Source: Bdellovibrionales bacterium
Lineage (GTDB): Bacteria; Bdellovibrionota; Bdellovibrionia; Bdellovibrionales; CAYMLA01
Assembly: GCA_965217115.1 (NCBI GenBank)
Contig: OZ244239.1
Coordinates: 1,938,791-2,002,790 of the forward strand
DNA length: 64,000 nt
Direction of reading: 5' to 3'
Position numbers and translations under genes: made by a program. Shown piece after piece: positions 7,501-29,113 of the stretch (position 1 is its first letter; each line of letters starts with the position of its first letter). The notes beneath the pieces are model-generated. The model saw only the letters and a program-made list of their open reading frames with translations, did not search any database and was not told the DNA's origin.

Positions 7501-7849
7501 TGTATTAAACTCCTTAGTCGAAATCCCAGTCGTTGAGACTTATAAAAGCAAAGAGTGTACCAAGTGAAAATGGACCTAAGGCTAAGAAAGTCTGGTTTTT
7601 TGTTTAAAGACTCTCAGGTGTATAAAAGATATTTGTTTTTCTTAAGATTTCAGGAGTTATTCCCGTTGTTTTTCCATATAACTGGCTTCCTTTAATGGGC
7701 AACCCTATGATTAGAGAGTGCCTGTCGTTTAGATCTGCGACGAAAGTCTCGTTAATTTTGAAAAAAACCTGGGCAAACTGTAATTTTTTGTCGATTTATT
7801 GCACTTACTTGGGTAGAGACTAAATATAATTAAAAACAAGGGAGATATC

Positions 7850-10308
<2,459 letters not shown>

Positions 10309-10340
10309 TTAGATGAATAGGCAAGATGTCGTTCGGAGAT

Positions 10341-11336
10341 TCATGCTATGTCGCAATGGGCAATTGATGATGAATGTCTTCGGTACCATTGCCTGTCAGG
10401 AGGGAGAAGATCATCTAAGGATTCGTTGTTGAAGTGGGCTTCAACTTTGTTAAGGGATTCTAAAGAAGATTTTCTGAGTGCTTCGTTCGTTGTCACTCCT
10501 AGATGGGGTGAGAGGATGACATTGTCACAATGGAGTAGGGGGTGACCGAGAGGGAGAGGTTCCTGTTCAAACACATCTAAACAAGCACCTGCTATGATTT
10601 TTTTTTGCAGAGCTTCTACGAGGTGACCTTCGTGAACGGTAGAACCACGGCAAGCATTTATGAGAAGACACCGTGGGGGCATCTTAATTAAATTATTCTT
10701 ATTTATCATGTGATGCGTTTCCTGGGTGAGGGGAACGTGAAGGGTGACGACATCAGAGTTTCTAAGCAGATCATCTAACTGTGAATAGCGCGTGTAGTTT
10801 AAGTTTTCCCCGTTCACATATGGGTCATGGTATTGAATTTGGCAGCCATAAGCTTTGAGTATACGGGCCACGTGCTGCCCGATGCGGCCCATGCCGACAA
10901 CACCTATTTTTTTTCCTTCTAATTCAGAGCCTATTAACTGTGAGCGATCCCAGTGGGCTGAGTGAATTTGTTTCGTCGCTTGGAATATTTTTTTAAAGAA
11001 ACAATGGAGTAATAACAAGGTGAGCTCTGCAGTGCTGGCAATATGAGCATTGGGCGTGTGCGCAGTGGCGATGTTAGATTTTCGTGTTGCATCTAAATCA
11101 ATGTGATCAAAACCACTAGTGGCCGTAATAATAAGTTCTAGATGGGGGCAGAGTTTTAAAAAATCGGTTGTGATTTTTGTTTGTGAACGAATGATAATGG
11201 CGTTTGCAGTTTGCAATTGCCGTTGAATTTCTTTTTCTGTTGGCCCAGCGATTTCGATATCAAAGGGCCAGGGCTTCTCTTTAAGGAGTGTTTTATCAAA
11301 GCGGCCAATAATAAGAGTTTTTGGTTGATTTTCCAT
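10341..11336 (-). CDS. D-isomer-specific 2-hydroxyacid dehydrogenase (phosphoglycerate dehydrogenase-like, no ACT domain)
   Basis: 331 aa. NAD-binding GVVGMGRIGQ, a catalytic-region RG...E...H pattern, and location downstream of a class-V aminotransferase. Confidence 0.75.
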   Translation of the reverse strand: MENQPKTLIIGRFDKTLLKEKPWPFDIEIAGPTEKEIQRQLQTANAIIIRSQTKITTDFLKLCPHLELIITATSGFDHIDLDATRKSNIATAHTPNAHIASTAELTLLLLHCFFKKIFQATKQIHSAHWDRSQLIGSELEGKKIGVVGMGRIGQHVARILKAYGCQIQYHDPYVNGENLNYTRYSQLDDLLRNSDVVTLHVPLTQETHHMINKNNLIKMPPRCLLINACRGSTVHEGHLVEALQKKIIAGACLDVFEQEPLPLGHPLLHCDNVILSPHLGVTTNEALRKSSLESLNKVEAHFNNESLDDLLPPDRQWYRRHSSSIAHCDIA

Positions 11337-15599: not shown

Positions 15600-16406
15600 T
15601 TGGAGTTTTCACAAAAAAAAATGTACTCTTTATACCTACTTTGCGAACCTTTTCTGGGGGAGCTAAGGGGGGTCATGCTTAGATTTAGAAAATTGGAAAC
15701 AGAGGCAGATCTACAGGAATTCTGTGATAGTTACGGTCGTTCTGTTAGCAAGAGAATCGGCGAAAATTATCGCACCACCCTAGCTGGAGCGATGAAAAAG
15801 ACGAAGGTCGTTGGGGTTTACCAGAACGGAGAGATGATTGGTGGTTATGCTCTGAGTAAAGTGCCCCACACAGCACTGGGCCTTCTCACTGAAGAGAATA
15901 AAAATAAAATGAGAGAGATGGCACCTCTTGAGTCGTTCTGCGATTTAGGGAGTATTTGGAAAAAAAAGGGATTCTCAAAGTTTCTTTTTAAGAATATTGT
16001 CTGGCCTAGAATTATGTTGGAGACTCTTTTCTTTTATCCTAGCAAGAAAAACATCATCGGTTATGTGGCGACAGGACATGGTCGAGCAGATGCCTACTTT
16101 CTTGCGAAGCCAGTCTATCTACAAAACTCAACTGTTACGGGTGAGGTGAATGTTTTTGTTTTAGATAGAAAAACTTTATTACTTGCTTTTTTGGCGGCCT
16201 TCCTCGTTGAGTCGTTTGTAAAACCTTTTAAGCGTTTAATAAAAAAAACCCACACTCCCCCAGAGAGCAAACAAGTTTTTAAACAGAATTTAGATTTCGA
16301 CTTTAAGGAAGATAGCCAAAGAGATAAAGGTCGAGATAGAGATAGAGATAGAGATGTCCTTCCTCAAGAGGAAGGGTTTAAAGAAGATTTTAGTGATCTC
16401 ACTTAA
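15600..16406 (+). CDS. hypothetical protein, possible GNAT-fold acyltransferase with a charged RD-repeat tail
   Basis: 268 aa. VVGVYQNGEMIGGYAL and GSIWKKKGFSKFLF resemble the GNAT beta4/alpha3 region. The assignment is weak. C-terminal RDRDRDRD is encoded by a GAGATA repeat. Confidence 0.45.
   Translation: MEFSQKKMYSLYLLCEPFLGELRGVMLRFRKLETEADLQEFCDSYGRSVSKRIGENYRTTLAGAMKKTKVVGVYQNGEMIGGYALSKVPHTALGLLTEENKNKMREMAPLESFCDLGSIWKKKGFSKFLFKNIVWPRIMLETLFFYPSKKNIIGYVATGHGRADAYFLAKPVYLQNSTVTGEVNVFVLDRKTLLLAFLAAFLVESFVKPFKRLIKKTHTPPESKQVFKQNLDFDFKEDSQRDKGRDRDRDRDVLPQEEGFKEDFSDLT
16333..16355. repeat. hexanucleotide tandem repeat (GAGATA) x about 3.8
   Basis: Read directly. It encodes RDRDRDRD in ORF 15600..16406 and ends in the ATG (16354) of the next ORF. 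Confidence 0.9.
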
Positions 16407-17094
16407 AAGGGAGTTTCTTCTCGAAATTTTCTCGGTTTTCTTTATTCTCTTTATTCCTGGTATTGTTTGGGGCATCACATTTTTATTTGCAATTCAGTCT
16501 TTCCAAGAAGCGCGATACGAGGCCCTTCTTCTTTTACCTTTTGTGGCCTCTTTAACCTGTATATTAGTGGTCTTTCTTTTTAGGCTTCTATTGCCTAAAT
16601 TAAAGCCAGGAATTTATGACACCAAGACAGATTTAATGCCTGTTTTTTGGTATCTCCATATGTGTCTCAACAGAGGTGCTATATCAACAGGGCTTTTGTT
16701 TATTATCAGAAGTTCCAATATTTTAAAATATCTCCATTTAAAAGCTCTTGGTGCTAAAGTGGCTTATACTGCCAAGTACTCAATGGATTTGGTGATTTCA
16801 GACCCCTCCTTAGTTACTATAGAAAGTGATGTTGCTATAGGAGGGCAGTGTTTCATAGCTTCTCACCTTGTCATTGGTAGAAGACTTGTCTTAGGAAAGG
16901 TTCATTTAAAAAGAGGGGCCTTTATTGCTTATGGGAATGTGATCGCTCAAGGAACTGTTGTTGGAGAAAAAGCTGTCATTGGTATTGGGAATTATCTTTA
17001 TCGAGATAAAATTCCAGACAACGAGAAGCTTGGTCGTTTCGCTTGGTCAAAAGGGTCTCCTAAAGCTCGAGAAGCTACTGGACAAAAACCATAG
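16354..17094 (+). CDS. membrane protein with a C-terminal left-handed beta-helix (hexapeptide-repeat) domain, resembling the terminal domain of Pls/PosA-type NRPS
   Basis: 246 aa. Two or three N-terminal TM helices. Then LKALGAKVAYTAKYSMDLVISDPSLVTIESDVAIGGQCFI...VHLKRGAFIAYGNVIAQGTVVGEKAVIGIGN...WSKGSP. From memory this follows the TIGR02353 pattern (RxLGAxIG ... DLxxIG ... WxGSPA). Confidence 0.55.
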   Translation: MSFLKRKGLKKILVISLKREFLLEIFSVFFILFIPGIVWGITFLFAIQSFQEARYEALLLLPFVASLTCILVVFLFRLLLPKLKPGIYDTKTDLMPVFWYLHMCLNRGAISTGLLFIIRSSNILKYLHLKALGAKVAYTAKYSMDLVISDPSLVTIESDVAIGGQCFIASHLVIGRRLVLGKVHLKRGAFIAYGNVIAQGTVVGEKAVIGIGNYLYRDKIPDNEKLGRFAWSKGSPKAREATGQKP

Positions 17095-17340
17095 AAAATC
17101 TTATCAGCCCAGGCTTTATGGAATTCAATCAGCACGACAGATGAGTTGTTCACAATAAGTGCAGTCATTCAAAATAGCCTGACAGACTCCTATGAACCCC
17201 CTTGGGCTTTAGGAAAAGAACCTGACTCCGCCTTTGTTAACTATGGGTTTGGCCTATGATAATAAATGAAGTGACCTCTTTTAAGGGATGTTCTAGAATA
17301 TAGCAGATTTAAACCTTTCTTTGCTGGAGTTGGAGGAATA

Positions 17341-18876
17341 GTGATCAAACTCTCTCAGATATTTATTCTTAGTTTCAGTGTATTTTTTCTTCAAACCTCT
17401 GTTGTTTCGGCTAATCTTTCTGGAGATGCTAAGGGGATTTTGAAGGTTTTGCCACAGAAAAAACTTACTTTAGACATGGTTCTTCAGCAGGGTCTGAACT
17501 CAGACAGTTTTGAAATCATTGGAGTTCAAGGATTGCAAAAGGAATTATTGAATTTTTCAAGAAGAGCCCCCCTGGCCGTGGGGTTTTCAGGCCGTATCGT
17601 CGAGGGGAGTGATAAATCGTCGCCCCATCGCCCTGGCTCATCTTACAACGCCCAGTCTCTAATAGGTGCTCTAAGTGTGAGTAAGGCTTTTTTATCAGGA
17701 ACATCTCTCTCGTTGCAGTCTAATTATCAGAACATAGATTCTCGTTCCACATCCTTTCTAGGGCAAGGTGACGGAATCCACTCTCAGTATCATGAGAATA
17801 AAATTGTATTCAATCTAAGACAGGATTTGTGGAAAAATTCTTTTGGTTATGCCACGAGAAAATCTTTGGAATCCTTAGAGGTCCAAGAGAGAAATGTGAC
17901 TAACGAAGTTTCTGTGAATATCGAGAATTGGGCCTATGAGCTCTTGCATAACTACTACAACACCTGGTTGTTTCAATCTAGAGTTAAGGTTGAGGAAGAA
18001 AATGATCAACGGCAGAGGCGGTTGCGTAAAGTCACGAAGTTGAAACTTCAGAGGGGGACAGCCGAGAGACCAGATTTTTTACAGGCTAAGAGCGCTGAGA
18101 AAAACACTTACCAAAATTTAAAGAGGGCAGAGCAGGATTTGGGCAATATGTGGCGTCATCTCGTTGTGACATTAAAATTCCCTGAAAAGTGGTTGGATAT
18201 AGATCCGCTTTTAGTTTCCATAGAATTGGATGAACCTATTCCTCAAGCTGAGAGTTTTTGTCGACAACCACTTGATTTAGGTTCTAATTTAAAAATAATT
18301 TCTTTGAGGGAAAAATCTAAGGCGGCTCGGTTGAATCTAGCTGCGGCCAAAAACAAGCTATTGCCTGATGTTTATTTTGGACTAAAGCTGACATCTAATG
18401 GAGTTAAATCTGCAGATGGGGGTTATCCTCTTAAAGACTCGTTGGAGAATAAAAACAGGGGAGTGTTTGTAGAACTAGGTGTTTCTATTCCTATGGGCAA
18501 TTATGAGAATAAAGCAAACCTTGTTAGAGCGACGATGAGTGAAAGATCCACAAGATATAGTTTATCAAATATAGAGGGAGATTTGAAAATCAATTGGAAG
18601 GGTCAGTGTTTGAATTTAAAACGCTTGATAGAGAAGAGAGAAAAATTAAAATCAATCCGTATGATGCAAAAACAGAGGGTTGAATTAGAAGAAAAACGTT
18701 TTCGTGTGGGACAGGTCGCTATATTTAATGTAATTCAGGCGGGCAATGACGCTGCCTTGGCAGATTTTTCGTTGAAACGATCAGAAGTAGAGGTGCGTTT
18801 ATCTGCTTGGGAAATATTAAAAATGGGTGGAGAGTTGACGGCCCATCTTAAAAAATTGATGGGTAATAGAAAATGA
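17341..18876 (+). CDS. TolC-family outer membrane efflux protein
   Basis: 511 aa. Signal peptide, two coiled-coil/beta repeats with typical LxxAxxxLxxA segments, and an ATGA overlap with the RND gene. Confidence 0.75.
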   Translation: MIKLSQIFILSFSVFFLQTSVVSANLSGDAKGILKVLPQKKLTLDMVLQQGLNSDSFEIIGVQGLQKELLNFSRRAPLAVGFSGRIVEGSDKSSPHRPGSSYNAQSLIGALSVSKAFLSGTSLSLQSNYQNIDSRSTSFLGQGDGIHSQYHENKIVFNLRQDLWKNSFGYATRKSLESLEVQERNVTNEVSVNIENWAYELLHNYYNTWLFQSRVKVEEENDQRQRRLRKVTKLKLQRGTAERPDFLQAKSAEKNTYQNLKRAEQDLGNMWRHLVVTLKFPEKWLDIDPLLVSIELDEPIPQAESFCRQPLDLGSNLKIISLREKSKAARLNLAAAKNKLLPDVYFGLKLTSNGVKSADGGYPLKDSLENKNRGVFVELGVSIPMGNYENKANLVRATMSERSTRYSLSNIEGDLKINWKGQCLNLKRLIEKREKLKSIRMMQKQRVELEEKRFRVGQVAIFNVIQAGNDAALADFSLKRSEVEVRLSAWEILKMGGELTAHLKKLMGNRK

Positions 18877-21800
18877 AATGGCTAATTGATTACTTTGCAC
18901 GGCAGGGGATTTTTTCCAATGTAATTACTTTTTTGGTATTTATTCTTGGAATTCTGTCATTAATAACAATCAATCGAGAGGCTTTTCCCAATATCAAATT
19001 TGATATGATTGTCGTGAACACGATCTATCCTGGAGCCTCCTCTGAAGAGGTGGAGAAATTGGTGACAAACCCCTTGGAGCAAGAATTTAAGAGTATTGAC
19101 GGTGTAAAGAAGATAACTTCTGTTTCTATTGAGAGTCGCAGTTCTATTATATTGCAATTAGATCCGGATCAAACGACAGAGGAAGACGCGAGGCGTGACG
19201 TTCGAGAGGCACTGGACCGTGTAACAGATTTACCGGCTGGAGCTGAGAATCCGTTGATTGTAGTTATAAATAGCAAGGTAACACCAACCATAGAAGTGAC
19301 ATTGAGTAGTAAGCCCAACAATCGATTGAGTGAAGATCAAATGAGAGAGCAGGTAAAACTTGTAGAGGAAAAGCTACATGAATTATCTGGTGTGAGTCGT
19401 ATTAGCAGAAATGGCTATAGAAAAAGAGAGATTAAAGTAAAAGCGAATCTTTTAAAGTTGCAAAGTTATCATATCTCTTTACAGGATTTAATAAGGGTAC
19501 TGGGGGCGGAGAACTCTTCTATTCCAGGGGGTGTTTTTCAATCTAAGGTGACTGGTAAAAATATACTGATTCGAACAGTGGGTGATTTTTTAAATACGGA
19601 TGATGTGGGCGACACAATTATTCGATCAAATGCTTTGGGACAGGTTGTTCGTGTAAGAGATGTTGCTAAGGTGAGCATGGGGTTTGAGGAAGCCAAGGTG
19701 ATCTATCATTCTGGTGGCAAAAAAGCTATTAATTTAGTGATTTTTAAAAAAGATGGAGCCGATGCGATCGATCTAGTGAATCTTATAAAGCAAGAGCTTG
19801 ATCAAGATAAAGCGAGTTTTCATAAGGGGCTAGAAGTTAATTATGTAAATGATCTATCCTATTACATTCGTCGTCGCTTGTCTGTTCTATCGAGCAATAT
19901 GCTCATTGGTTTAGTGTTAGTATTGACTATTTTATCTTTTATTTTACCAGGGAGAGTGGCTTTAATCACTTCGTTGGGAATTCCATTTTCATTTTTTGCC
20001 ACATTTCTTTATTTTGGGAATATGGGGATATCATTAAACCTTTTGACCATGATTGGTTTAATTATTGTGGTTGGAATGTTAGTGGATGATGCCGTAGTTG
20101 TTACAGAGAATGTGCAAAGATACGCAGAAAAAGGTTTGTCTCCTATGGATGCGGCGATTAAGGGCACTCAGCAAATATGGGCGCCAGTGACGGCCTCAGT
20201 GATGACAACAGTTGTGGCTTTCACGCCTATGCTGTTTATGTCTGGAATTACAGGGAAGTTCATGAAATTTATTCCCCTTGGAGTGATCTTAGCATTGCTT
20301 TTTAGTTTGTATGAATGTTTTTTTATTTTGCCCCATCATCTGGCGAATTGGATAAAAAAGGGAGATTCTGAAAAAGCTCAACAGAGAAAACTGGTCAAGT
20401 GGTGGAATCAAAGAGCCATTCCTAGTTATGGGCATTTTATGAAAAAGGTGCTGGAGCGTCGCTATCTGGTGGTGTCGATTTCATTTGCATTGTTCTTGGC
20501 AACGATTTTTTTGGCGACAAGGATGACATTTATTTTATTTCCGGCAAGTGGGGTAGAGGTTTTCCAAATTCGCTTTGATGCTCCCCTTGGGACTTCGATG
20601 GATAAAACATTGGAGATAATAAAGCCTATAGAAGCTATTGTGGCAAAATTAAGAAAAGATGAAGTAAAGAATTTTACAACTCAAGTAGGGCTTCAACAGG
20701 AGAATCCGACTGATCCGAGTACAAAGCGTGGAGATGAGTACGGACAGATTAATGTTTATCTGACTCCAGCAACAAGTAGAGAGCGTCGAGCCGATGAGAT
20801 TATTGATGATCTAAGAAAGAGGGTAGGGAAAATACCTGGATTGGAGAAGTTGACGTATTCACAGAAACAGGGGGGGCCTCCTGTTGGGAAAGCTGTGAGT
20901 TTAGGTGTTCGGGGGAAGTCCTACCAAGATATTTTACCAGCGGTGGAATCGGTGAAGGCTTTTTTAAAGACAATTAAGGGGACTTTTGATGTTGATGACT
21001 CTTATTTGGTGGGTAAGTCAGAGTTACAGATAAAAGTGGATTCAGTGGAGGCGGCGGCGGCATCATTGTCTCTGGCCAGTATTGGTAACTCTGTTCGTGC
21101 GGCCTATGAAGGTGTGGTGGCAACGAGTATCCGTGAATTGGATGAAAAGATTGATGTTCGAGTCTCTCTGGAAAACCAAGAAAAAGACTCTAAATCATCT
21201 TTGATGTCCATGCTCATTCCTAATCAAAGAGGAAACTTAGTCGCTTTAAATCGTGTGGCGCGTTTGGAGCACTCTGAAGGGGTAGCGCTCTATGAGCACG
21301 AAAACAATCAACGTCAAGTGAAGGTGACGGCAGGAGTAAATGAGAAGGTAACAAGCTCTGGAGAGGTCAATAGTTTACTACGTTCTGAGTTGAATAATTT
21401 CCGTCAAAAGCACTCGAATGTTGATTATTTCTTTGGTGGAGAGGACCAAGATAGCAGAGATAGCATAGCTTCTTTGACGAAAGCATTTGTCATCGCTGCC
21501 ATGGGTATTTTTATGATTCTAATATTAACTTTTAGAAATATTTTTCAACCTTTTTTAGTTCTTTTTGTGACAATTCCCTTGGGGATCATGACTGTGGTTT
21601 GGACATTTTATCTCCATGGTCGTCCATTGACATTTTTAGGAATGTTGGGAGTTGTAGCGCTAGCGGGGGTGATTGTGAACAATGCCATTGTTCTGGTGTC
21701 GTTTATTAATGAAGAGCGGAAAAATGGTGTAGACCGCTTTACGAGTATTGTTAACGGGGCTAAGATGCGTTTACGTCCGATATTTTTGACAACTTTGACG

Positions 21801-21998
21801 ACTGTGGCGGGGATTTTGCCGACGGCCTACGGTTGGGGAGGGCTTGACCCTTTTGTGGTGCCGATAGCTCTTGGTTTGGGATGGGGTATTTTCTTTGGAG
21901 CATTTCTAACAACGATTGTATTTCCAGCGAGTTTAGCGGTATTAGATGATATTCATATTCTTATAAATAAAAAACTCTCCCATATCTTTGGAATATAG
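18873..21998 (+). CDS. RND efflux transporter permease (AcrB/CzcA superfamily)
   Basis: 1041 aa with 12-TM architecture. Typical N-terminus FxxRxxxxxVxxxLxxxxGxxS, and GLIIVVGMLVDDAVVVTEN. Confidence 0.9.
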   Translation: MKWLIDYFARQGIFSNVITFLVFILGILSLITINREAFPNIKFDMIVVNTIYPGASSEEVEKLVTNPLEQEFKSIDGVKKITSVSIESRSSIILQLDPDQTTEEDARRDVREALDRVTDLPAGAENPLIVVINSKVTPTIEVTLSSKPNNRLSEDQMREQVKLVEEKLHELSGVSRISRNGYRKREIKVKANLLKLQSYHISLQDLIRVLGAENSSIPGGVFQSKVTGKNILIRTVGDFLNTDDVGDTIIRSNALGQVVRVRDVAKVSMGFEEAKVIYHSGGKKAINLVIFKKDGADAIDLVNLIKQELDQDKASFHKGLEVNYVNDLSYYIRRRLSVLSSNMLIGLVLVLTILSFILPGRVALITSLGIPFSFFATFLYFGNMGISLNLLTMIGLIIVVGMLVDDAVVVTENVQRYAEKGLSPMDAAIKGTQQIWAPVTASVMTTVVAFTPMLFMSGITGKFMKFIPLGVILALLFSLYECFFILPHHLANWIKKGDSEKAQQRKLVKWWNQRAIPSYGHFMKKVLERRYLVVSISFALFLATIFLATRMTFILFPASGVEVFQIRFDAPLGTSMDKTLEIIKPIEAIVAKLRKDEVKNFTTQVGLQQENPTDPSTKRGDEYGQINVYLTPATSRERRADEIIDDLRKRVGKIPGLEKLTYSQKQGGPPVGKAVSLGVRGKSYQDILPAVESVKAFLKTIKGTFDVDDSYLVGKSELQIKVDSVEAAAASLSLASIGNSVRAAYEGVVATSIRELDEKIDVRVSLENQEKDSKSSLMSMLIPNQRGNLVALNRVARLEHSEGVALYEHENNQRQVKVTAGVNEKVTSSGEVNSLLRSELNNFRQKHSNVDYFFGGEDQDSRDSIASLTKAFVIAAMGIFMILILTFRNIFQPFLVLFVTIPLGIMTVVWTFYLHGRPLTFLGMLGVVALAGVIVNNAIVLVSFINEERKNGVDRFTSIVNGAKMRLRPIFLTTLTTVAGILPTAYGWGGLDPFVVPIALGLGWGIFFGAFLTTIVFPASLAVLDDIHILINKKLSHIFGI

Positions 21999-22092: not shown

Positions 22093-24111
22093 ATGAGACT
22101 CCGTTTTTGTTTAATTACCGTGTTAGTCCTATTTTTAACGTCCTGCTTTTCAACTCTAAGTAAGAAGAAGGGCGATTCTGTCACTTCTCAAAAATTAGTT
22201 TCTAGTGAAGAACTAAAATATGAGAGTGTGACTTCTTTGAAAAAAAAATGTCATAGCCTTATTCCTGGAGCTTGTCTGCTTTATGGGAAAAAGCTCTTAA
22301 AGAGAGGGAAATGGAGACAGGCCAAGAGTGCCTTTTTTAAAATGTGCCGACGGGAAGATTCTGAGGGTTGTGCTCAGTATGTGTTACTTGTTTTACTGGA
22401 GAAGCAAACGAAAAGCTTAGATCGTTTGCACAAAATTATAGACAGTCATTGCGTGGGGGGAGCCAAAGAGTCTTGCTATGCCCAGGGAAAAATTTTCCTC
22501 TTACAAGAGAAGAAAGAAGAGGCAATGAGACTTTTTAAGGGAGCTTGTGAAGATGAATTGGCGGTGGCTTGTTTGGAATTGGGTAGAGGCTACAGGGAAC
22601 AGAAAGAATTTAGTGATGCTCAGATTTGGTTAAATCGAGGCTGTGACTACGAAGAGCCGTTGGCTTGTTTAGAGCTTGCCGAAATTTATGAGAAAGAGAA
22701 TAAAAAGAAGAGTGCCATTGATTTTTATGAAAAGGCTTGTGAGCAGGGGGGAGATGAAAACTGTTTGCAAATGAGCCTTTTTCATATTCGCATGGGTGAG
22801 AGAAAACTAGCTCAAAAGGAACTAACTATTTCATGCAGTGCGGGCTTTGTGAGAGCTTGTGCCTATTTAGGAAAGAGCCTTTTGGCGGACAATCAGCAAT
22901 CAAGAGGTGAGAAAATATTAAATGAAGTCTGTGGGGAAAAAGAGGTTCTAGGGTGTTTATTCCGTGGAATCTCCTTGGAGAGCCAGGGCCTTGGACAGAG
23001 ATCAATGGAGTTTTATGAGAAATCTTGTAAATTGAACAGTGATGAAGGCTGTCAGCTCTTTGCACGGGCCTTGTCGTTGAGTCGTGATAAGAAGATGGTG
23101 ACGAAGCTAGAAGAGTTCTGTCAGCAGGGAAGAGAGAGCTTTTGTTTAGGTTTGGGAAAGTTCTTTGAGAATTTAGGGCAAAATGAAAGTGCTGTTCTTG
23201 AGTATGATAAAATTTGTCAGAGGGGTGTTTTTAAGGGATGTTTGCGAAAAGCTGTTGTTTTAGAGAGTCAGGGTAAGGACGATGGGGTTGAAAAGGTTTA
23301 CCAGAGGGGTTGTCAAAACGGGGACCTTGAGGCTTGTTCTTATTTGGGGAATAGGTATGAGAAGTCTAAAGATGTGGGAATTGCTGAATCGTTTTATAGA
23401 AAGGCTTGTAATAAAAAAATAGCGATTGGTTGTGCTTACTTGGCTCGTTTTTATGAGCGTAGGGGCAATAATGAAGAGACGCAGAAGTATTACTTATTGG
23501 GATGCAAAGAGGGGTATGGAGTTGGGTGTTACCACTTGAGTTTAATTTATGGGAAAAAGAAGAAAAAGAGAGAGTCTTTGTCCTATGCTAAGAAAGGTTG
23601 TTATTATGGTGACAGTCTTAGTTGTAACTTAGTTGCGTTGAATTTACAGAGCAAGGGGGAGCATCAGGAATCTTTAGAACTATTTGAGAGAAGTTGTGCT
23701 AAAAACAATCTGGAAGCTTGCCGAGAGTTGGGTAAAATATATGGTTTTTTAGGTGAAGTGAGTAAGGCGAAGGAAGTTCTGGAGAAATCTTGTTTGCAAG
23801 AAGACACCATGGCATGTCAGTTTTTGGGTGAACTTTATTGGAAGAACAAGAAATTAGATCAAGCGGGAAAGTATTACAAGAAGGGTTGTGATAAGAAAGG
23901 AGCTGTAAGCTGTACGAAATTAGGAGATTACTATGAAAAGATTGATAAGTGGAAGAAGTCCCATAAACATTACCATGAGGGCTGTCAGTTAGGAGATGCC
24001 ATTGGTTGTGTGAATTATGCAATTAACCTGCGTAGTGAAGGGAATAATAAGAAGGCCAAGAAGTATTTCAAAAAAGCTTGTGATTTGGGTGAGACAACTT
24101 ACTGCCAATAG
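22093..24111 (+). CDS. Cys-rich Sel1-like repeat lipoprotein (Helicobacter Hcp-like architecture)
   Basis: 672 aa with lipobox LTSC. More than 15 units of about 36 aa, each with a Cys pair (for example ACLELGRGY...WLNRGC, ACLELAEIY...YEKAC). Confidence 0.8.
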   Translation: MRLRFCLITVLVLFLTSCFSTLSKKKGDSVTSQKLVSSEELKYESVTSLKKKCHSLIPGACLLYGKKLLKRGKWRQAKSAFFKMCRREDSEGCAQYVLLVLLEKQTKSLDRLHKIIDSHCVGGAKESCYAQGKIFLLQEKKEEAMRLFKGACEDELAVACLELGRGYREQKEFSDAQIWLNRGCDYEEPLACLELAEIYEKENKKKSAIDFYEKACEQGGDENCLQMSLFHIRMGERKLAQKELTISCSAGFVRACAYLGKSLLADNQQSRGEKILNEVCGEKEVLGCLFRGISLESQGLGQRSMEFYEKSCKLNSDEGCQLFARALSLSRDKKMVTKLEEFCQQGRESFCLGLGKFFENLGQNESAVLEYDKICQRGVFKGCLRKAVVLESQGKDDGVEKVYQRGCQNGDLEACSYLGNRYEKSKDVGIAESFYRKACNKKIAIGCAYLARFYERRGNNEETQKYYLLGCKEGYGVGCYHLSLIYGKKKKKRESLSYAKKGCYYGDSLSCNLVALNLQSKGEHQESLELFERSCAKNNLEACRELGKIYGFLGEVSKAKEVLEKSCLQEDTMACQFLGELYWKNKKLDQAGKYYKKGCDKKGAVSCTKLGDYYEKIDKWKKSHKHYHEGCQLGDAIGCVNYAINLRSEGNNKKAKKYFKKACDLGETTYCQ

Positions 24112-24402: not shown

Positions 24403-24537
24403 TTGTCTATTCTAACAAATATTTCCATTAAATGAAGGGCCAGGTAGGTTTTTATCTAAAAGCTGGCCTATGGTTTTTATTTTAATTTTTATTTGGTTTT
24501 GTGGCACTTTGAGGAGAAGTCCTTTATAATTAGTAAC

Positions 24538-25803
24538 ATGAAGCTATCATCACTTAATTTTTTAGAGTTAGAGCACTTTTGCTCACTAGCTCAATGTCTA
24601 GTAGACGGACGTGTTCAAGAGGTGTGGACCAACCAAAGAGGAGTGGGGTTCTTTGTTTGGAAAACTCAAAAGAGCGCTTGGTTGTGGTTTGATTTAACCC
24701 CAAAAACTCCTTTTCCTGCCTTAATAGAATGCAAGAGACTTCCCTTTGTGAAGAAGATAAAGCCTTTGGGATTGTTTGTGAAATCTCATGTTGTGGGTAA
24801 TAGTATTAAGCGTATTTATTGTAAAGAGAAAATGGGAAGAGTCATTTTTATAGAAGGAGATACTTTTTCCTTAGAAATCCGTTTATTCCCCCATGGGCAA
24901 AATTTAATTGTAAAAACAGCTGAAAAATCTATTAGTTGGCTTCGAGTTAAGGCTCTTAAAGGTGGCAGTTCTAAAGAGTTACAGATGGAAACCAGAGATC
25001 TACAAGAGCTTCAGGAAGTTTGGCTTAAATCTTTACGGGAAGAGAGAGGGGCAGGACAAGGTGTTGCTGGTAAAGACAAGAGCTTGTTATCGATTCTGAA
25101 GAGAGATCTCTTAAAAAAAGAAAAAGCTTTAGTGAAAATAAAAGAGAGCTTAGAAGAAAGATTGAGCAATGACTGGCTAATTTTGGGTAAGTTATTACAG
25201 GAAAAGCAGAGTTTGAACATTTCAGAAAAATGGAAGACATGGATTAATGAACAGGAGTCATTGTCGTTTAATATTCAAATGTGCTTTGAGAAGCATAAGA
25301 GTCAAAAGAAAAAAATCGTAGGAACTCGTGAGAGAATAGGGATGTTAAAAGATGAAATAAATCTGATAAAAAATAAAATAGAAAACTTTGATCTGAAGGG
25401 TAGTGAGAATAACATTCAAATCGTTAAGAGCGAGAAAAGTTTCTTGCGTCAGGCCGAAGCTAAGGGGAAAAAGCTAGTTTTATCTCAAGGCAAAGAGGCT
25501 GTTATCGGAAAATCGGCTAGGGATAATTTGGCGATTTTGCGCAGAGCCAAGCCTTGGTTTCTTTGGGTGCATATTAAGGATAGTCCAGGGGCCTATGGAG
25601 TTGTACTTTGTCAGCGTAAGCAGGTGGTGACGGATGAGGAATTGCGGCAAGTTTGCCGTTGGTTGCTAAAAGAATCTAAGGAGAAGGGAGAGGGGAGCTT
25701 TGATTTCCTTATAGCTGAATGTCGATACATCACTCCTATCAAGGGTGATCGAATTGGGCGTGTGACATATAAAAATGAGCGAGTAATTACGGTTGGTATT
25801 TAA
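24538..25803 (+). CDS. NFACT-family protein (RqcH/FbpA-like, short form) with a DUF814/NFACT-R domain
   Basis: The ORF is open from TTG 24493; ATG 24538 is preferred. The C-terminal GKSARDNLAILRRAKPWFLWVHIKDSPGAYGVVL matches the NFACT-R motif. Central coiled coil. Confidence 0.65.
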   Translation: MKLSSLNFLELEHFCSLAQCLVDGRVQEVWTNQRGVGFFVWKTQKSAWLWFDLTPKTPFPALIECKRLPFVKKIKPLGLFVKSHVVGNSIKRIYCKEKMGRVIFIEGDTFSLEIRLFPHGQNLIVKTAEKSISWLRVKALKGGSSKELQMETRDLQELQEVWLKSLREERGAGQGVAGKDKSLLSILKRDLLKKEKALVKIKESLEERLSNDWLILGKLLQEKQSLNISEKWKTWINEQESLSFNIQMCFEKHKSQKKKIVGTRERIGMLKDEINLIKNKIENFDLKGSENNIQIVKSEKSFLRQAEAKGKKLVLSQGKEAVIGKSARDNLAILRRAKPWFLWVHIKDSPGAYGVVLCQRKQVVTDEELRQVCRWLLKESKEKGEGSFDFLIAECRYITPIKGDRIGRVTYKNERVITVGI

Positions 25804-25882: not shown

Positions 25883-26809
25883 ATGATCTGCGTGGAGAGG
25901 CTGAGTAAATTTTACGGCAATTATAAGGCCTTGGACAGAGTGTCCTTTACGATCAAAGAAGGTTCTTTAGTGGGACTTCTTGGAGCTAACGGGGCTGGTA
26001 AAACGACATTAATGGATGTTCTTGCTGGAGTCACTCACTATCAAGAGGGGGCAGTGTCTATTGATGGAGAGATGGTTGGAGATAGCCTTTCGGTGAAAGA
26101 AAAACTAGGTTATCTTCCTGATCAACCGCCGCTGTATTTAGATATGACTGTTAGTAATTACTTGCGGTATGTTGGGATTTTAAAAAGAGTTACACCGGAA
26201 AGAATCAATCAGAGAGTTGAAGATGTTTTAGGAAAACTAGAACTAGAGGATTACGCTCAATGTATTATTGAAAAATTGTCAAAAGGGTATCGTCAACGGG
26301 TGGGAATTGCACAAGCTCTGATAAATAATCCTAAGATTCTTATTCTGGATGAGCCGACGGTGGCCCTTGACCCTCGGCAAAGAGCGCAGGTGAAGGATCT
26401 AGTTAAATCTCTAAAGAGAGATCATACGATTTTGCTTTCTACGCATATTTTATCTGACGTAGAGGATATCTGTGATGAGGTGGTTTTAATTTCAGAGGGT
26501 AAATTAAAAACAAGGGGTTCTCTGGAGTCGTTATCAAAGATTGATGATGGTGGAGAAACCATCTTCCATTTAAGTCTAAGCAGTGATGTAAAAGTTAAAG
26601 AGCTTTTTTTGATCGATGAAGTAAAAGATGTAAAGAAAATTTCTCAGAAAAAATGGCAAATTTCTTTTATGAAAAATGAAAACGAGAGATCGAGTGCTTC
26701 GGATCGCTATTTAGAAATTTTAGCTCGTCATAGTTGGGGGATTCGTGAGTATGTTTGTGCATCTAAAAACCTAGAGAACCTTTTTTTTACAGATGAGAAT
26801 GTAAAATGA
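25883..26809 (+). CDS. ABC transporter ATP-binding protein (GldA-like)
   Basis: Walker A GANGAGKTT, signature LSKGYRQR, and Walker B ILILDEP. Confidence 0.9.
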   Translation: MICVERLSKFYGNYKALDRVSFTIKEGSLVGLLGANGAGKTTLMDVLAGVTHYQEGAVSIDGEMVGDSLSVKEKLGYLPDQPPLYLDMTVSNYLRYVGILKRVTPERINQRVEDVLGKLELEDYAQCIIEKLSKGYRQRVGIAQALINNPKILILDEPTVALDPRQRAQVKDLVKSLKRDHTILLSTHILSDVEDICDEVVLISEGKLKTRGSLESLSKIDDGGETIFHLSLSSDVKVKELFLIDEVKDVKKISQKKWQISFMKNENERSSASDRYLEILARHSWGIREYVCASKNLENLFFTDENVK

Positions 26810-27573
26810 TCTTTGAAATATGGAAAAAAGAGATAAAATCGTTGTTTTTATCACCAGGGTTGTATGTTGTGTTTTCTCTTTGCGCATCATTGTTTAGTTG
26901 GAGATTCTTGATTAACTTGCAATATTTTGCACAGAACTATCAGAATCAGGTTTTTCAACTAGGTCAGGCAAATTACTCTATGCATATTCATTTTGGATTG
27001 TTTGCAGGGCATTTATCATACCTGAATTTGGTGTTTATTCTCTTTACCCCCGTTTTGACCATGAAATTATTGGCAGAAGAGAAAAGATCGGGAAGTTTAA
27101 AGTTGTTATTCTCCAGCCCAATTTCTTCGTGGCAAATTATTGGAGGTAAGTACTTGGCAGCAGTGACATTGATGTTCTGTGTGCTTCTTTTGTCTTTTTT
27201 ATTTCCCCTTATTTGCGTATTTTTTGCGGAAGTGGATTGGATTTTATTATTGGGATCTTATTTCGGTATGTTTCTTCTAGGGTGTTTGTATGTGGGTATA
27301 GGAATATTTAGTTCATCGTTAGGGTCATCGGTGATGGTGTCGTTAATTTTGGGAATTTTTCTCAATGTAATGGTTTGGTTTTTGGGTGTTAATGCAGAGA
27401 TGGCTGACAGTCAATGGATACGGGAAGCTTTGCAACATTTATCTTTGAATTATCACATCTCGGGTATGATTCAGGGTGTGTTTCATCTAAGTGCTGTGGT
27501 CTTTTTTGCAAGTCTGACGGGGCTATTTTTACTATTGTCTGAGACATTTTTGCAATTTTTGAAGTGGAAGTAA
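26806..27573 (+). CDS. ABC-2 type permease (GldF-like)
   Basis: 255 aa with about 6 TM. EEKRSGSLKLLFSSPIS motif typical of ABC-2/GldF permeases. Overlaps the ATPase gene. Confidence 0.75.
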   Translation: MIFEIWKKEIKSLFLSPGLYVVFSLCASLFSWRFLINLQYFAQNYQNQVFQLGQANYSMHIHFGLFAGHLSYLNLVFILFTPVLTMKLLAEEKRSGSLKLLFSSPISSWQIIGGKYLAAVTLMFCVLLLSFLFPLICVFFAEVDWILLLGSYFGMFLLGCLYVGIGIFSSSLGSSVMVSLILGIFLNVMVWFLGVNAEMADSQWIREALQHLSLNYHISGMIQGVFHLSAVVFFASLTGLFLLLSETFLQFLKWK

Positions 27574-27574
27574 A

Positions 27575-29113
27575 ATGGGCGGGTTATTAAAGGTTTATTC
27601 TATATTATTACTCCTAAGTCTTTTGTCTTATGTTATGGGTCGGTACACTTTAGGCTATTTCATTCCTTTTTTCTGGTTGCCCATTGGCTTAAGTGCACTC
27701 CTCTTTGTTTTAATATTATTTCATCTGCGAGAGAAAATCGTATTGTTCTTTAGAATGAAATCAACTCACCATAGAGTAAGCGCAGGTAGTAAGCTGTTTT
27801 TGATTATGTGCTTTGTGGCTTTTTTGAATTTTTTATCGGTTCGCTACAATGTAAGTTATGATTTTTCGCCAGAACAGATGAATTCTTTGAGTGTGTCTTC
27901 TTTTGGAGTTTTGCAGAAATTAGAGGAACAGGCAAAAATCGTGTTCTTTTATCGTCAAGGTGAGCAGAAGAGCCAGGCTGAAAAGCACAAGTTTGTGAAT
28001 TTAATGCGTAAATATCAGGATGTAACATCAAAATTAGAGGTCAATTTTGTTGAGGTGACAGAAAACCCAGATATAGCTAAACGTTTTGGAGTGGATAAGG
28101 GAGCAGGTGTTGTTTTTGTAGAATACAAAGGTCATCGGAGCCGTGTTGATCGAGTAGCAGAGGCTGATGTGACAAGTGCGTTGAACATTGTGACGGAGAG
28201 GGGGCCAAAGGAGAAGGTTTATTTTTTAACAGGCCATGGGGAAAAAGAAGATCAAGACCCTTCATCGTTAGATGGAATTAAATCATCTGTATACTTATTA
28301 GAGGGCAATGGCTATCTTCTTAAAAAACTGAGTTTAATCACAAAAACTCGTGTCCCAGAGGAGGTCAAGACGCTTTTTATTATTGGCCCTCAGGAAAGTT
28401 TTCTAGAGCATGAGGTGGAGGCATTGATCAAATATGTGCAAAGGGGGGGGAGTCTGTTTTTAGCTTTGGATCATACTGTTGCCAGAGGTGTATCATCTTT
28501 AAAGCCATTGTTAAATTTTTTGGGTATCGAATATAAAAATCATTATGTTATTGGAATGACTCAAACATCTAATGGGTGGGCTTTGACACCGAAGCTGACG
28601 TTGGCGACAGCGTTTAATTCTCAGAACCCTTTAACCAGTGAATTTAAAGAGGGAGAGTATGCCGTTTTTCGCACTCCAGGGTCTTTAGTTATAAAAAAAG
28701 CTAAAACGAACAAAGTAAAAAAGAGAGTCAGTACTTTATTGAGTACAGGGGTGGATGTTCGTGCTTTGGGCTCTTTGGATTTGAAGGGAATCCAGAAAAA
28801 AGGACCATTTTCTTTAGCTATGTTGATGAAATTAGGAAAAAGGGCATCTAAGGTTGTGGTGGTGGCTTCGAGTAGTTTTATGACCAATCAACTGTGGAGT
28901 CATGGCGTAAACAGAGATTTTTTTCTTAAAGTAACTTCTTTTTTAACGGGCAGTAAGAATCAGGTGAAGGTAGAGCCTCCCCATTGGCGTTTGGGCAGAT
29001 TTTCACTAACTCCTGACGGGTTTAATCTTTATGCGTTGCTTTTTGCTGTGCCCTTACCTATTGTTTTATTAGGAATGGCTATTTTTCGTTACATACGTAG
29101 AAAAGGTATTTAG
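27575..29113 (+). CDS. GldG-like ABC-system auxiliary protein
   Basis: 512 aa. N- and C-terminal TM anchors flank a large soluble domain. It is the third gene of the ABC-2 operon, as in gldAFG. Confidence 0.6.
   Translation: MGGLLKVYSILLLLSLLSYVMGRYTLGYFIPFFWLPIGLSALLFVLILFHLREKIVLFFRMKSTHHRVSAGSKLFLIMCFVAFLNFLSVRYNVSYDFSPEQMNSLSVSSFGVLQKLEEQAKIVFFYRQGEQKSQAEKHKFVNLMRKYQDVTSKLEVNFVEVTENPDIAKRFGVDKGAGVVFVEYKGHRSRVDRVAEADVTSALNIVTERGPKEKVYFLTGHGEKEDQDPSSLDGIKSSVYLLEGNGYLLKKLSLITKTRVPEEVKTLFIIGPQESFLEHEVEALIKYVQRGGSLFLALDHTVARGVSSLKPLLNFLGIEYKNHYVIGMTQTSNGWALTPKLTLATAFNSQNPLTSEFKEGEYAVFRTPGSLVIKKAKTNKVKKRVSTLLSTGVDVRALGSLDLKGIQKKGPFSLAMLMKLGKRASKVVVVASSSFMTNQLWSHGVNRDFFLKVTSFLTGSKNQVKVEPPHWRLGRFSLTPDGFNLYALLFAVPLPIVLLGMAIFRYIRRKGI

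Follow-up and report, generated by a model that had tools for sequence, protein, structure and literature searches.

The C-terminal domain in Pls/PosA-family nonribosomal peptide synthetases (NRPSs) forms amide bonds without a condensation domain, and we know of no established mechanism for it. A 64,000-nucleotide stretch of a Bdellovibrionales genome (contig OZ244239.1, positions 1,938,791 to 2,002,790 of the forward strand; hereafter the window) raises the question of whether one repeat of this domain also occurs as a protein of its own, and with what partners. A preliminary description of the DNA had noted two overlapping open reading frames (ORFs), ORF1 and ORF2, the first compared with GNAT acyltransferases and the second with the Pls terminal domain, and had joined them to a downstream efflux pair as a possible module for making and exporting an amide. 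Both reading frames lie on the + strand where they had been placed, and the quoted ORF2 peptides and N-terminal transmembrane (TM) helices are present. ORF2 is related to, and probably works like, one repeat of this terminal domain, and a few Bdellovibrio-like bacteria share the conserved ORF1-ORF2 pair.

Relationship of ORF2 to the Pls/PosA terminal domain

ORF2 (16354..17094, + strand; the same as public annotation P0001) is predicted to encode a membrane-anchored, single-unit Pls-type left-handed β-helix (LbH) acyltransferase of 246 aa, and a GTG at 16393 is an alternative start that would fit the N terminus of the homologue P0003. The top NCBIfam match of ORF2 is TIGR02353, the model of the Pls/PosA family NRPSs (E 3.2e-11, 42.3 bits, aa 124-225), which outranks NeuD, LpxD, LpxA, GlmU, and WcaF. 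The same model is matched by 60 of 60 sampled single-unit relatives, all below threshold, and is the sole NCBIfam model matched by every one of them.

The protein begins with a membrane hairpin of TM1, a short loop, and TM2 (aa 22-79; 16417..16590, + strand), seen both in Kyte-Doolittle windows and in the AlphaFold2 (AF2) model. The windows give hydrophobic helices at aa 22-46 and 57-79 with a 10-residue loop between them, and AF2 gives helices at 17-51 and 61-79 with a predicted local distance difference test score (pLDDT) of 90-96. Lysines and arginines number 7 in the N-terminal tail, 1 in the loop, and 8 in the linker. The positive-inside rule predicts an N-in/C-in hairpin, and the catalytic part would therefore face the cytoplasm. 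The basic linker (aa 80-135; 16591..16758, + strand) opens with LPKLKPGIY, an instance of LPKLKPGxY, and continues with a β-strand, helices carrying W99..H102..R107, and the RALGAK motif; AF2 places the strand at 86-89 and the helices at 95-131 with pLDDT 80-89. The predicted left-handed β-helix (aa 136-225; 16759..17028, + strand) has about five coils and contains His171, the codon of which occupies 16864-16866. In its hexads, aliphatic residues are found in 11/16 and 10/16 cases at positions 0 and 1, and in 2/15 at positions 3 and 4. Hexapep is the sole Pfam match on ORF2 (E 7.6e-4, below threshold), and solved LbH enzymes match the ORF2-family profiles (LacA at E 1e-7; QdtC, GlmU, and others at E 1e-10 to 3e-14). 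The periodicity and the profile matches together place ORF2 among the hexapeptide-repeat LbH proteins, the AF2 model of that part being of low confidence.

The homology to Pls-type proteins covers the hairpin and linker and not just the hexapeptide repeats, so that the likeness put forward in the preliminary description is upheld. The TM hairpin, KPGxY, helical linker, RxLGAK, and LbH are co-linear in ORF2 and in Pls units, and all three units of two synthetases, P0158 and P0178, align to family profile positions ~13-215, from the hairpin into the β-helix. G86, W99, R130, and G133 are kept in most or all Pls-type units. A control profile of the hairpin and linker only, with the LbH left out, was searched against the long proteins of the family and, as background, against ~3,100 six-frame ORFs from the whole set of loci. 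It was specific, matching only family members and correctly placed Pls-type units and 0 unrelated ORFs; fusions of one unit to a fatty acyl-AMP ligase (FAAL) and an acyl carrier protein (ACP) scored E~1e-18, and Pls units were matched weakly, at 1.7e-5 to above 1 (Z=1e6). Like ORF2, the units of the Pls/PosA terminal domain have a TM hairpin, a β-strand with two or three helices, and a ~5-turn LbH, together with the KPGxY, W..R, and RxLGAK motifs. In the AlphaFold model of PosA, three 5-turn LbHs form a pseudo-trimer on a six-helix bundle, and the order of elements in the ORF2 AF2 model is the order described for each unit of that model (PMC10522769).

The Pls/PosA synthetases differ in having three units fused to adenylation and peptidyl carrier protein (A-PCP) domains, where ORF2 is one unit and unfused, and in having an NRPS loading module as partner, where that of ORF2 is a GNAT. 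In Pfam searches ORF2 matches neither AMP-binding nor PP-binding, both of which are present in P0158 and P0178, and it is thus the free-standing 246-aa protein that had been proposed. It has one hairpin and one LbH rather than six TM helices and three units (C1-C3), and its 42.3 bits compare with a curated TIGR02353 cut-off of 423.1. Since three of the four defining features (A-PCP, three units, cut-off) are lacking, ORF2 does not belong to the Pls/PosA family proper; on its sequence it is best described as a free-standing single-unit homologue of the Pls repeat and not as a Pls-type NRPS. In the open literature that we searched, subscription papers being outside its scope, we found no description of free-standing single-unit forms, of their GNAT partner, or of the histidine pattern reported below, and the suggestion that the single-unit form had gone undescribed thus stands. 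No structure of a Pls C-terminal domain was found in the PDB, and literature searches for a Pls cryo-EM structure and for TIGR02353 were likewise empty.

Extent of the family and distribution of His171

When the ORF2-family profile was run exhaustively with HMMER against 1.84 billion cluster representatives, it matched 3518 proteins at E<=1e-3, of which 797 reached E<=1e-10 and 106 reached E<=1e-30; a single-sequence word-index search with ORF2 returned 16 relatives. Almost the full length of the profile is covered by the proteins with three matched stretches, A-PCP synthetases among them. About 135 of the 150 matches listed are free-standing proteins of 130-310 aa, and the rest of those listed are long proteins, mostly with two or three matched stretches. 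Neither Pfam nor NCBIfam holds a dedicated curated model for the single-unit family.

Pfam assigns to the long proteins two A-PCP-three-unit synthetases, which is the Pls/PosA architecture (P0158, P0178), a multi-module NRPS with three units at its end (P0142), a protein with three units and no A-PCP (P0146), and a FAAL-ACP-one-unit fusion (P0135, 943 aa). P0152, P0166, and P0171 resemble P0146 in length and in their three matched units (~680-690 aa), and P0138 (1017 aa) is classed as a FAAL-ACP-one-unit fusion by its length and its single C-terminal unit. The two fusions are the closest multi-domain relatives of ORF2, their unit being matched over its full length with 115-118 bits; they differ in carrying a FAAL and a carrier protein in cis, whereas the window has neither in cis nor nearby. 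Both the FAAL-ACP-single-unit fusions and the three-unit proteins free of A and PCP are unreported architectures of the Pls-type unit.

G86, W99, and H171 are invariant in a 60-sequence alignment. Among the matches listed, His171 is present in 148/150 single-unit proteins, and it is kept in both FAAL-ACP fusions. The pattern differs in the Pls/PosA type, where the equivalent of His171 is mostly confined to unit 3: among eight three-unit synthetase-type proteins the position is a histidine in 1/8 cases in unit 1, 0/8 in unit 2, and 7/8 in unit 3. On the simplest reading of this pattern, the single-unit proteins would be homotrimers with three equal sites and the fused pseudo-trimer would have one site. 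Once the units had been triplicated and fused, catalysis may have been retained solely at the site to which unit 3 contributes.

Relatives in fatty-acyl gene clusters

A distant single-unit clade occurs in 18 Legionella and Legionellaceae-like genomes, among them L. pneumophila subsp. fraseri and L. longbeachae. Its TM-LbH genes of Legionella type lie on loci L012-L029, L001, and L007, and on every locus the match falls at ~10001-10700. The surrounding cluster, as annotated for L001 and L007, consists of FabH, two FAAL-like AMP-binding proteins, an ACP, a ketoreductase (KR), and FabH, accompanied by a carboxyltransferase, an acyl-CoA dehydrogenase, and GH3; we found no account of a Legionella TM-LbH/FabH/FAAL cluster in the literature searched. 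A Pseudobdellovibrionaceae metagenome-assembled genome (MAG), L017, has two TM-LbH paralogues (7680-8387 and 9995-10684) on either side of a carboxyltransferase, with FabH, an AMP-binding protein, KR, an NAD_binding_4 reductase, an ABC-2 exporter, and RsgA as neighbours.

The Legionella and Pseudobdellovibrionaceae genes are 29-36% identical to ORF2 over the full length and have common motifs with it. They differ in lying within a fatty-acid/polyketide-like cluster with its own ACP and in lacking an ORF1-type GNAT; ORF1 is neither beside the Legionella-type clade nor in L017. The FabH/FAAL/ACP/KR clusters and the FAAL-ACP fusions point to thioester-bound acyl donors, and the presence of fatty-acyl-activating enzymes and ACPs, as fusion partners or cluster neighbours of the nearest relatives, favours a lipid-like acyl donor over amino-acid polymerisation.

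ORF1, a GNAT-fold partner

ORF1 (15675..16406, + strand; the same as the annotated P0017) is predicted to be a GNAT-fold acyltransferase of 243 aa. It had been taken for a 268-aa frame overlapping ORF2. The overlap is real (53 nt), but the TTG at 15600 that would give 268 aa was rejected as the start, the ATG at 15675 being in agreement with the AAGGGGGG Shine-Dalgarno-like site that precedes it, with P0017, and with every homologue; we regard this ATG as almost certainly the start.

In sequence searches the ORF1 protein of the window matched nothing in Pfam, NCBIfam, or the sequences of the PDB. A single-sequence word-index search returned ORF1 itself alone, and its homologues emerged when the neighbours of ORF2 homologues were used as seeds: the genes 5' of those homologues are 41-45% identical to ORF1. 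A profile search of 5.8 billion proteins gave a family of 13 members with 40-53% identity, and a metagenome scan with this family gave one locus, already in the set. Acetyltransf_9 is matched weakly in 3 of the 13 members (best E 6e-4).

AF2 models ORF1 at pLDDT 80 with GNAT topology (β1-α1-α2-β2-4-α3-β5-α4-β6) followed by a long C-terminal helix, and a Foldseek search with the model gave 387 PDB matches at E<=1e-3, of which all 50 listed are GNAT-fold acyltransferases. Among those listed, PaiA has the best E-value (8e-7) and FeeM (2g0b) the best TMq (0.50; TMt 0.64). The GNAT-like character given to ORF1 earlier is therefore confirmed at the level of fold, though no sequence model detects it in the window protein. 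The predicted fold is like those of the FeeM/OlsB-type N-acyltransferases and of the small GNATs PaiA and PA3270; ORF1 differs from them in having no significant sequence similarity, a non-canonical Q/RxxGxG, and an extra C-terminal hydrophobic helix. The segment after β4 reads K96-K-K-G-F-S101, and because this position varies among homologues (K-KGIS, K-GNVS, R-TDIS) the pyrophosphate-binding motif is considered non-canonical. To our knowledge, GNATs that use acyl-ACP also lack the Q/R-x-x-G-x-G/A motif. Invariant polar residues of the family are D90, Y130, H135, R137 (as H135-G-R137), and Y141, which are placed where GNAT active sites lie. The C-terminal helix (aa ~165-192), hydrophobic to amphipathic by hydrophobicity and moment, is a possible docking element for the membrane or for ORF2.

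The final ~40 residues of ORF1 form a low-complexity tail specific to the window. The C-terminal extension is missing in 11 of the 12 other family members, and that of P0028 is unrelated. This extension accounts for the 53-nt overlap with ORF2 in the window; the overlap in homologues is 4-8 nt. Part of the tail, RDRDRDRD, is encoded by an (AGAGAT)6 repeat (16320..16355, + strand; period 6, 6 copies, score 51 in TRF) that reaches into the ORF2 start codon. The repeat is a possible slippage-prone tract joining the reading frames of ORF1 and ORF2.

Gene neighbourhood of the pair

ORF2 lies directly 3' of ORF1 in all ten readable contexts, every one in Bdellovibrionales relatives (the window, the P0002 contig, L033, L034, L037, L003/L010, L005/L006, L035, L011, and L038). 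The co-occurrence of the genes across genomes, proposed earlier as a check on the module, thus holds for the two-gene pair and fails for all four genes: the four-gene module is not conserved because the downstream genes differ, being MMPL (three contexts), a 261-aa protein (three contexts), or a 408-aa ORF (L011), and the pair of outer membrane factor (OMF) and AcrB-type permease is found next to ORF1-ORF2 only in the window.

A pump of the resistance-nodulation-division (RND) superfamily follows the pair in 4 of 8 contexts with a readable downstream gene, and these pumps belong to two different families. In three contexts, forming the sub-clade closest to the window, the downstream gene encodes MMPL (757-759 aa) and overlaps ORF2; the two MMPL copies available are 77% identical to each other. 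Orthology between this MMPL and the RND permease of the window was rejected, their similarity being remote and of the superfamily alone (E 0.005 or worse).

In the window itself, ORF2 is followed by a 246-nt spacer (17095..17340, + strand) in which no terminator was detected and in which weak promoter-like sites occur; the 6 sites in this region compare with 3.7 +/- 1.9 expected, which is not significant. The OMF gene of the TolC family comes next (17341..18876, + strand; 511 aa; Pfam OEP at E 1e-15, TIGR01844 at E 3e-10), and overlaps by 4 nt the gene for the AcrB-type RND permease (18873..21998, + strand; 1041 aa; Pfam ACR_tran at E 1.6e-185). The efflux pair had been placed just downstream of ORF2. 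It is on the same strand, but 246 nt away and with no adjacent adaptor gene. Of the components of a tripartite RND system, the window thus has the OMF and the permease and no gene for the membrane fusion protein (MFP), and the two proteins are possible, unproven export partners of the pair.

In sub-clade B (three contexts), a secreted 261-aa protein follows ORF2, and then RsgA. The gene (L005:5574-6359, L035:4092-4877, L003:10946-11727) encodes a signal-peptide-like N terminus and has no Pfam match; in one MAG it is divided into two ORFs of 128 and 130 aa, and no homologue is present in the window. The position beside RsgA in L017 is that of the ORF1-ORF2 pair in sub-clade B. In L011 the 408-aa ORF after ORF2 has no Pfam match.

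Proposed function and alternatives

We consider it probable that the pair is a two-enzyme acyl-transfer module, conserved and translationally coupled, that works on the cytoplasmic side of the inner membrane and yields an amphiphilic product. Soluble LbH acyltransferases use acyl-CoA or acyl-ACP thioesters as donors and have their active sites at trimer interfaces, and all characterised LbH acyltransferases known to us are trimers. ORF2 would likewise assemble into a homotrimer whose membrane helices form a bundle of six and whose three active sites are equivalent; in these sites His171 would aid attack by an amine or hydroxyl acceptor on an acyl-phosphopantetheine thioester (acyl-ACP or acyl-CoA). 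ORF1, held by its C-terminal membrane- or partner-docking helix, would carry out a second acyl transfer in the same pathway, one option being formation of an N-acyl intermediate in the manner of FeeM and OlsB. The product would probably be an amphiphilic acylated amine or lipid, and it would be taken out of the inner membrane by an RND-superfamily pump, which in the closest relatives would be MMPL and in the window perhaps OMF-AcrB.

Several observations weigh against this proposal. AF2 models the ORF2 β-helix poorly (pLDDT ~50), and a Foldseek search of the PDB with the model gave nothing better than E 2.4, which is uninformative given that pLDDT; no membrane LbH structure was among the PDB matches. 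In profile-PDB alignments comparing His171 with the general-base His of enzymes of LacA or PglD type, it falls beside the LacA His115 loop and onto a His of 7s43, the register being ambiguous. The presumed ORF2 homotrimer is drawn by analogy from the LbH superfamily and the PosA pseudo-trimer model, and we know of no single-unit member with known activity, substrate, or product. The ORF1 protein of the window has no Pfam match and lacks the canonical Q/RxxGxG/A CoA motif. The linkage to transporters is inconsistent, four contexts having no downstream transporter, and in the window there is the 246-nt gap between ORF2 and the OMF gene and no adjacent MFP gene. No carrier protein or adenylating enzyme was found within ~10 kb in the window, and for this reason the donor for ORF2 is a guess.

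A bolder extension, which we put forward tentatively and hold to be the less probable, is that the single-unit TM-LbH protein represents the ancestral, homotrimeric form of the Pls/PosA polymerisation domain. ORF1-ORF2(-MMPL) might then be a so far unrecognised pathway that needs no carrier protein. Its GNAT and membrane trimer would build a novel product of predatory Bdellovibrio-like bacteria, an envelope lipid or a short isopeptide, and pass it to an RND-superfamily pump.

Three other explanations were considered. The one that survives best, while unlikely, separates ORF1-ORF2 functionally from the OMF-RND genes and has the pair act in situ on an endogenous component of the membrane or envelope, such as a lipid head group or lipoprotein, altering it without dedicated export. 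It draws on the 246-nt gap with its promoter-like sites, on the restriction of the OMF-RND pair to the window, and on sub-clade B, which has the secreted 261-aa protein instead of a transporter. The MMPL genes that overlap ORF2 in three relatives speak against it, as does the lack of a detected terminator after ORF2, and to find an RND-superfamily gene beside the pair a second time, independently, in the window would be an odd coincidence.

It is more doubtful still that ORF2 is a generic O- or N-acetyltransferase of the WcaF/NeuD/LacA type with a membrane anchor, which would transfer acetyl from acetyl-CoA to a sugar, polysaccharide, or lipopolysaccharide precursor and would owe its Pls likeness to the LbH repeats alone. 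The soluble LbH acyltransferases (LacA/Maa, GlmU, LpxA/LpxD, PglD/NeuD, QdtC) do share the hexapeptide-repeat β-helix with ORF2; Pfam and NCBIfam matches to NeuD, LpxD, WcaF, and GlmU are similarly weak, the PDB profile matches are all classical soluble LbH enzymes, and the Joint Genome Institute (JGI) labels one homologue a 'carbonic anhydrase/acetyltransferase-like isoleucine patch' protein. These enzymes differ, however, in having no membrane hairpin and no KPGxY/RxLGAK linker, and align with only the C-terminal ~90 aa of ORF2, whereas Pls units align from the TM hairpin on, with KPGxY, W..R, and RxLGAK. Also in conflict with a generic acetyltransferase are the standing of TIGR02353 as the best match and the only model common to all sampled members, the specificity of the N-terminal-only profile, and the gene neighbourhood, in which glycosyltransferase and polysaccharide genes are not adjacent to the pair.

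The least likely explanation is that the pair makes poly- or oligo-(amino acids) without a carrier protein. ORF1 (Fem- or L/F-like) would supply an aminoacyl group in activated form, aminoacyl-tRNA being one possible source; the ORF2 trimer would polymerise it through the membrane in the manner of Pls, and RND pumps would export the cationic product. In favour are the homology of ORF2 with the polymerising unit of Pls/PosA, an exporter adjoining the pair in four contexts, and a GNAT fold that is in keeping with aminoacyl-tRNA-dependent transferases, but A and PCP domains are absent, the closest multi-domain relatives are FAAL-ACP proteins at 118 bits as against 35-62 bits for each Pls unit (A-PCP), the paralogous clades lie in fatty-acid-type clusters, the best-TM fold matches of ORF1 are FeeM and small acetyltransferases rather than Fem, and MMPL pumps typically move lipids.

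The relevance of these findings lies in NRPS and LbH enzymology and possibly in Legionella and Bdellovibrio envelope biology. A homologue of 246 aa that should rebuild the Pls/PosA architecture as a symmetric homotrimer would be far more tractable for structure and enzymology, and the equivalent of His171 in repeat 3 offers a concrete mutational target in Pls/PosA. The searches bring to light a sizeable family without a dedicated curated model, the members of which include those in a conserved Legionella fatty-acyl cluster. The rare GNAT-paired form, in some cases coupled to MMPL, suggests that Bdellovibrio-like bacteria have an envelope lipid or amide yet to be characterised.

Other features of the locus

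PADLOC models match neither ORF1 nor ORF2, and the idea of a defence system was dropped. The wider flanks of the locus are of housekeeping character, with spermidine synthase, SpoU methylase, MsrAB, PurA, 2-hydroxyacid dehydrogenase, class-V aminotransferase, and PepN, and the downstream flank of the locus has a TPR/Sel1 protein and an ABC-2 transporter. The first of these, the next gene past the RND permease (22093-24111), encodes a 672-aa Cys-rich TPR/Sel1 repeat protein. Beyond it, an unannotatable 436-aa ORF (24493-25803) lies upstream of a three-gene set at 25883-29113 that encodes an ABC ATPase, an ABC-2 permease, and ABC_transp_aux, an auxiliary protein of the gliding-motility type.

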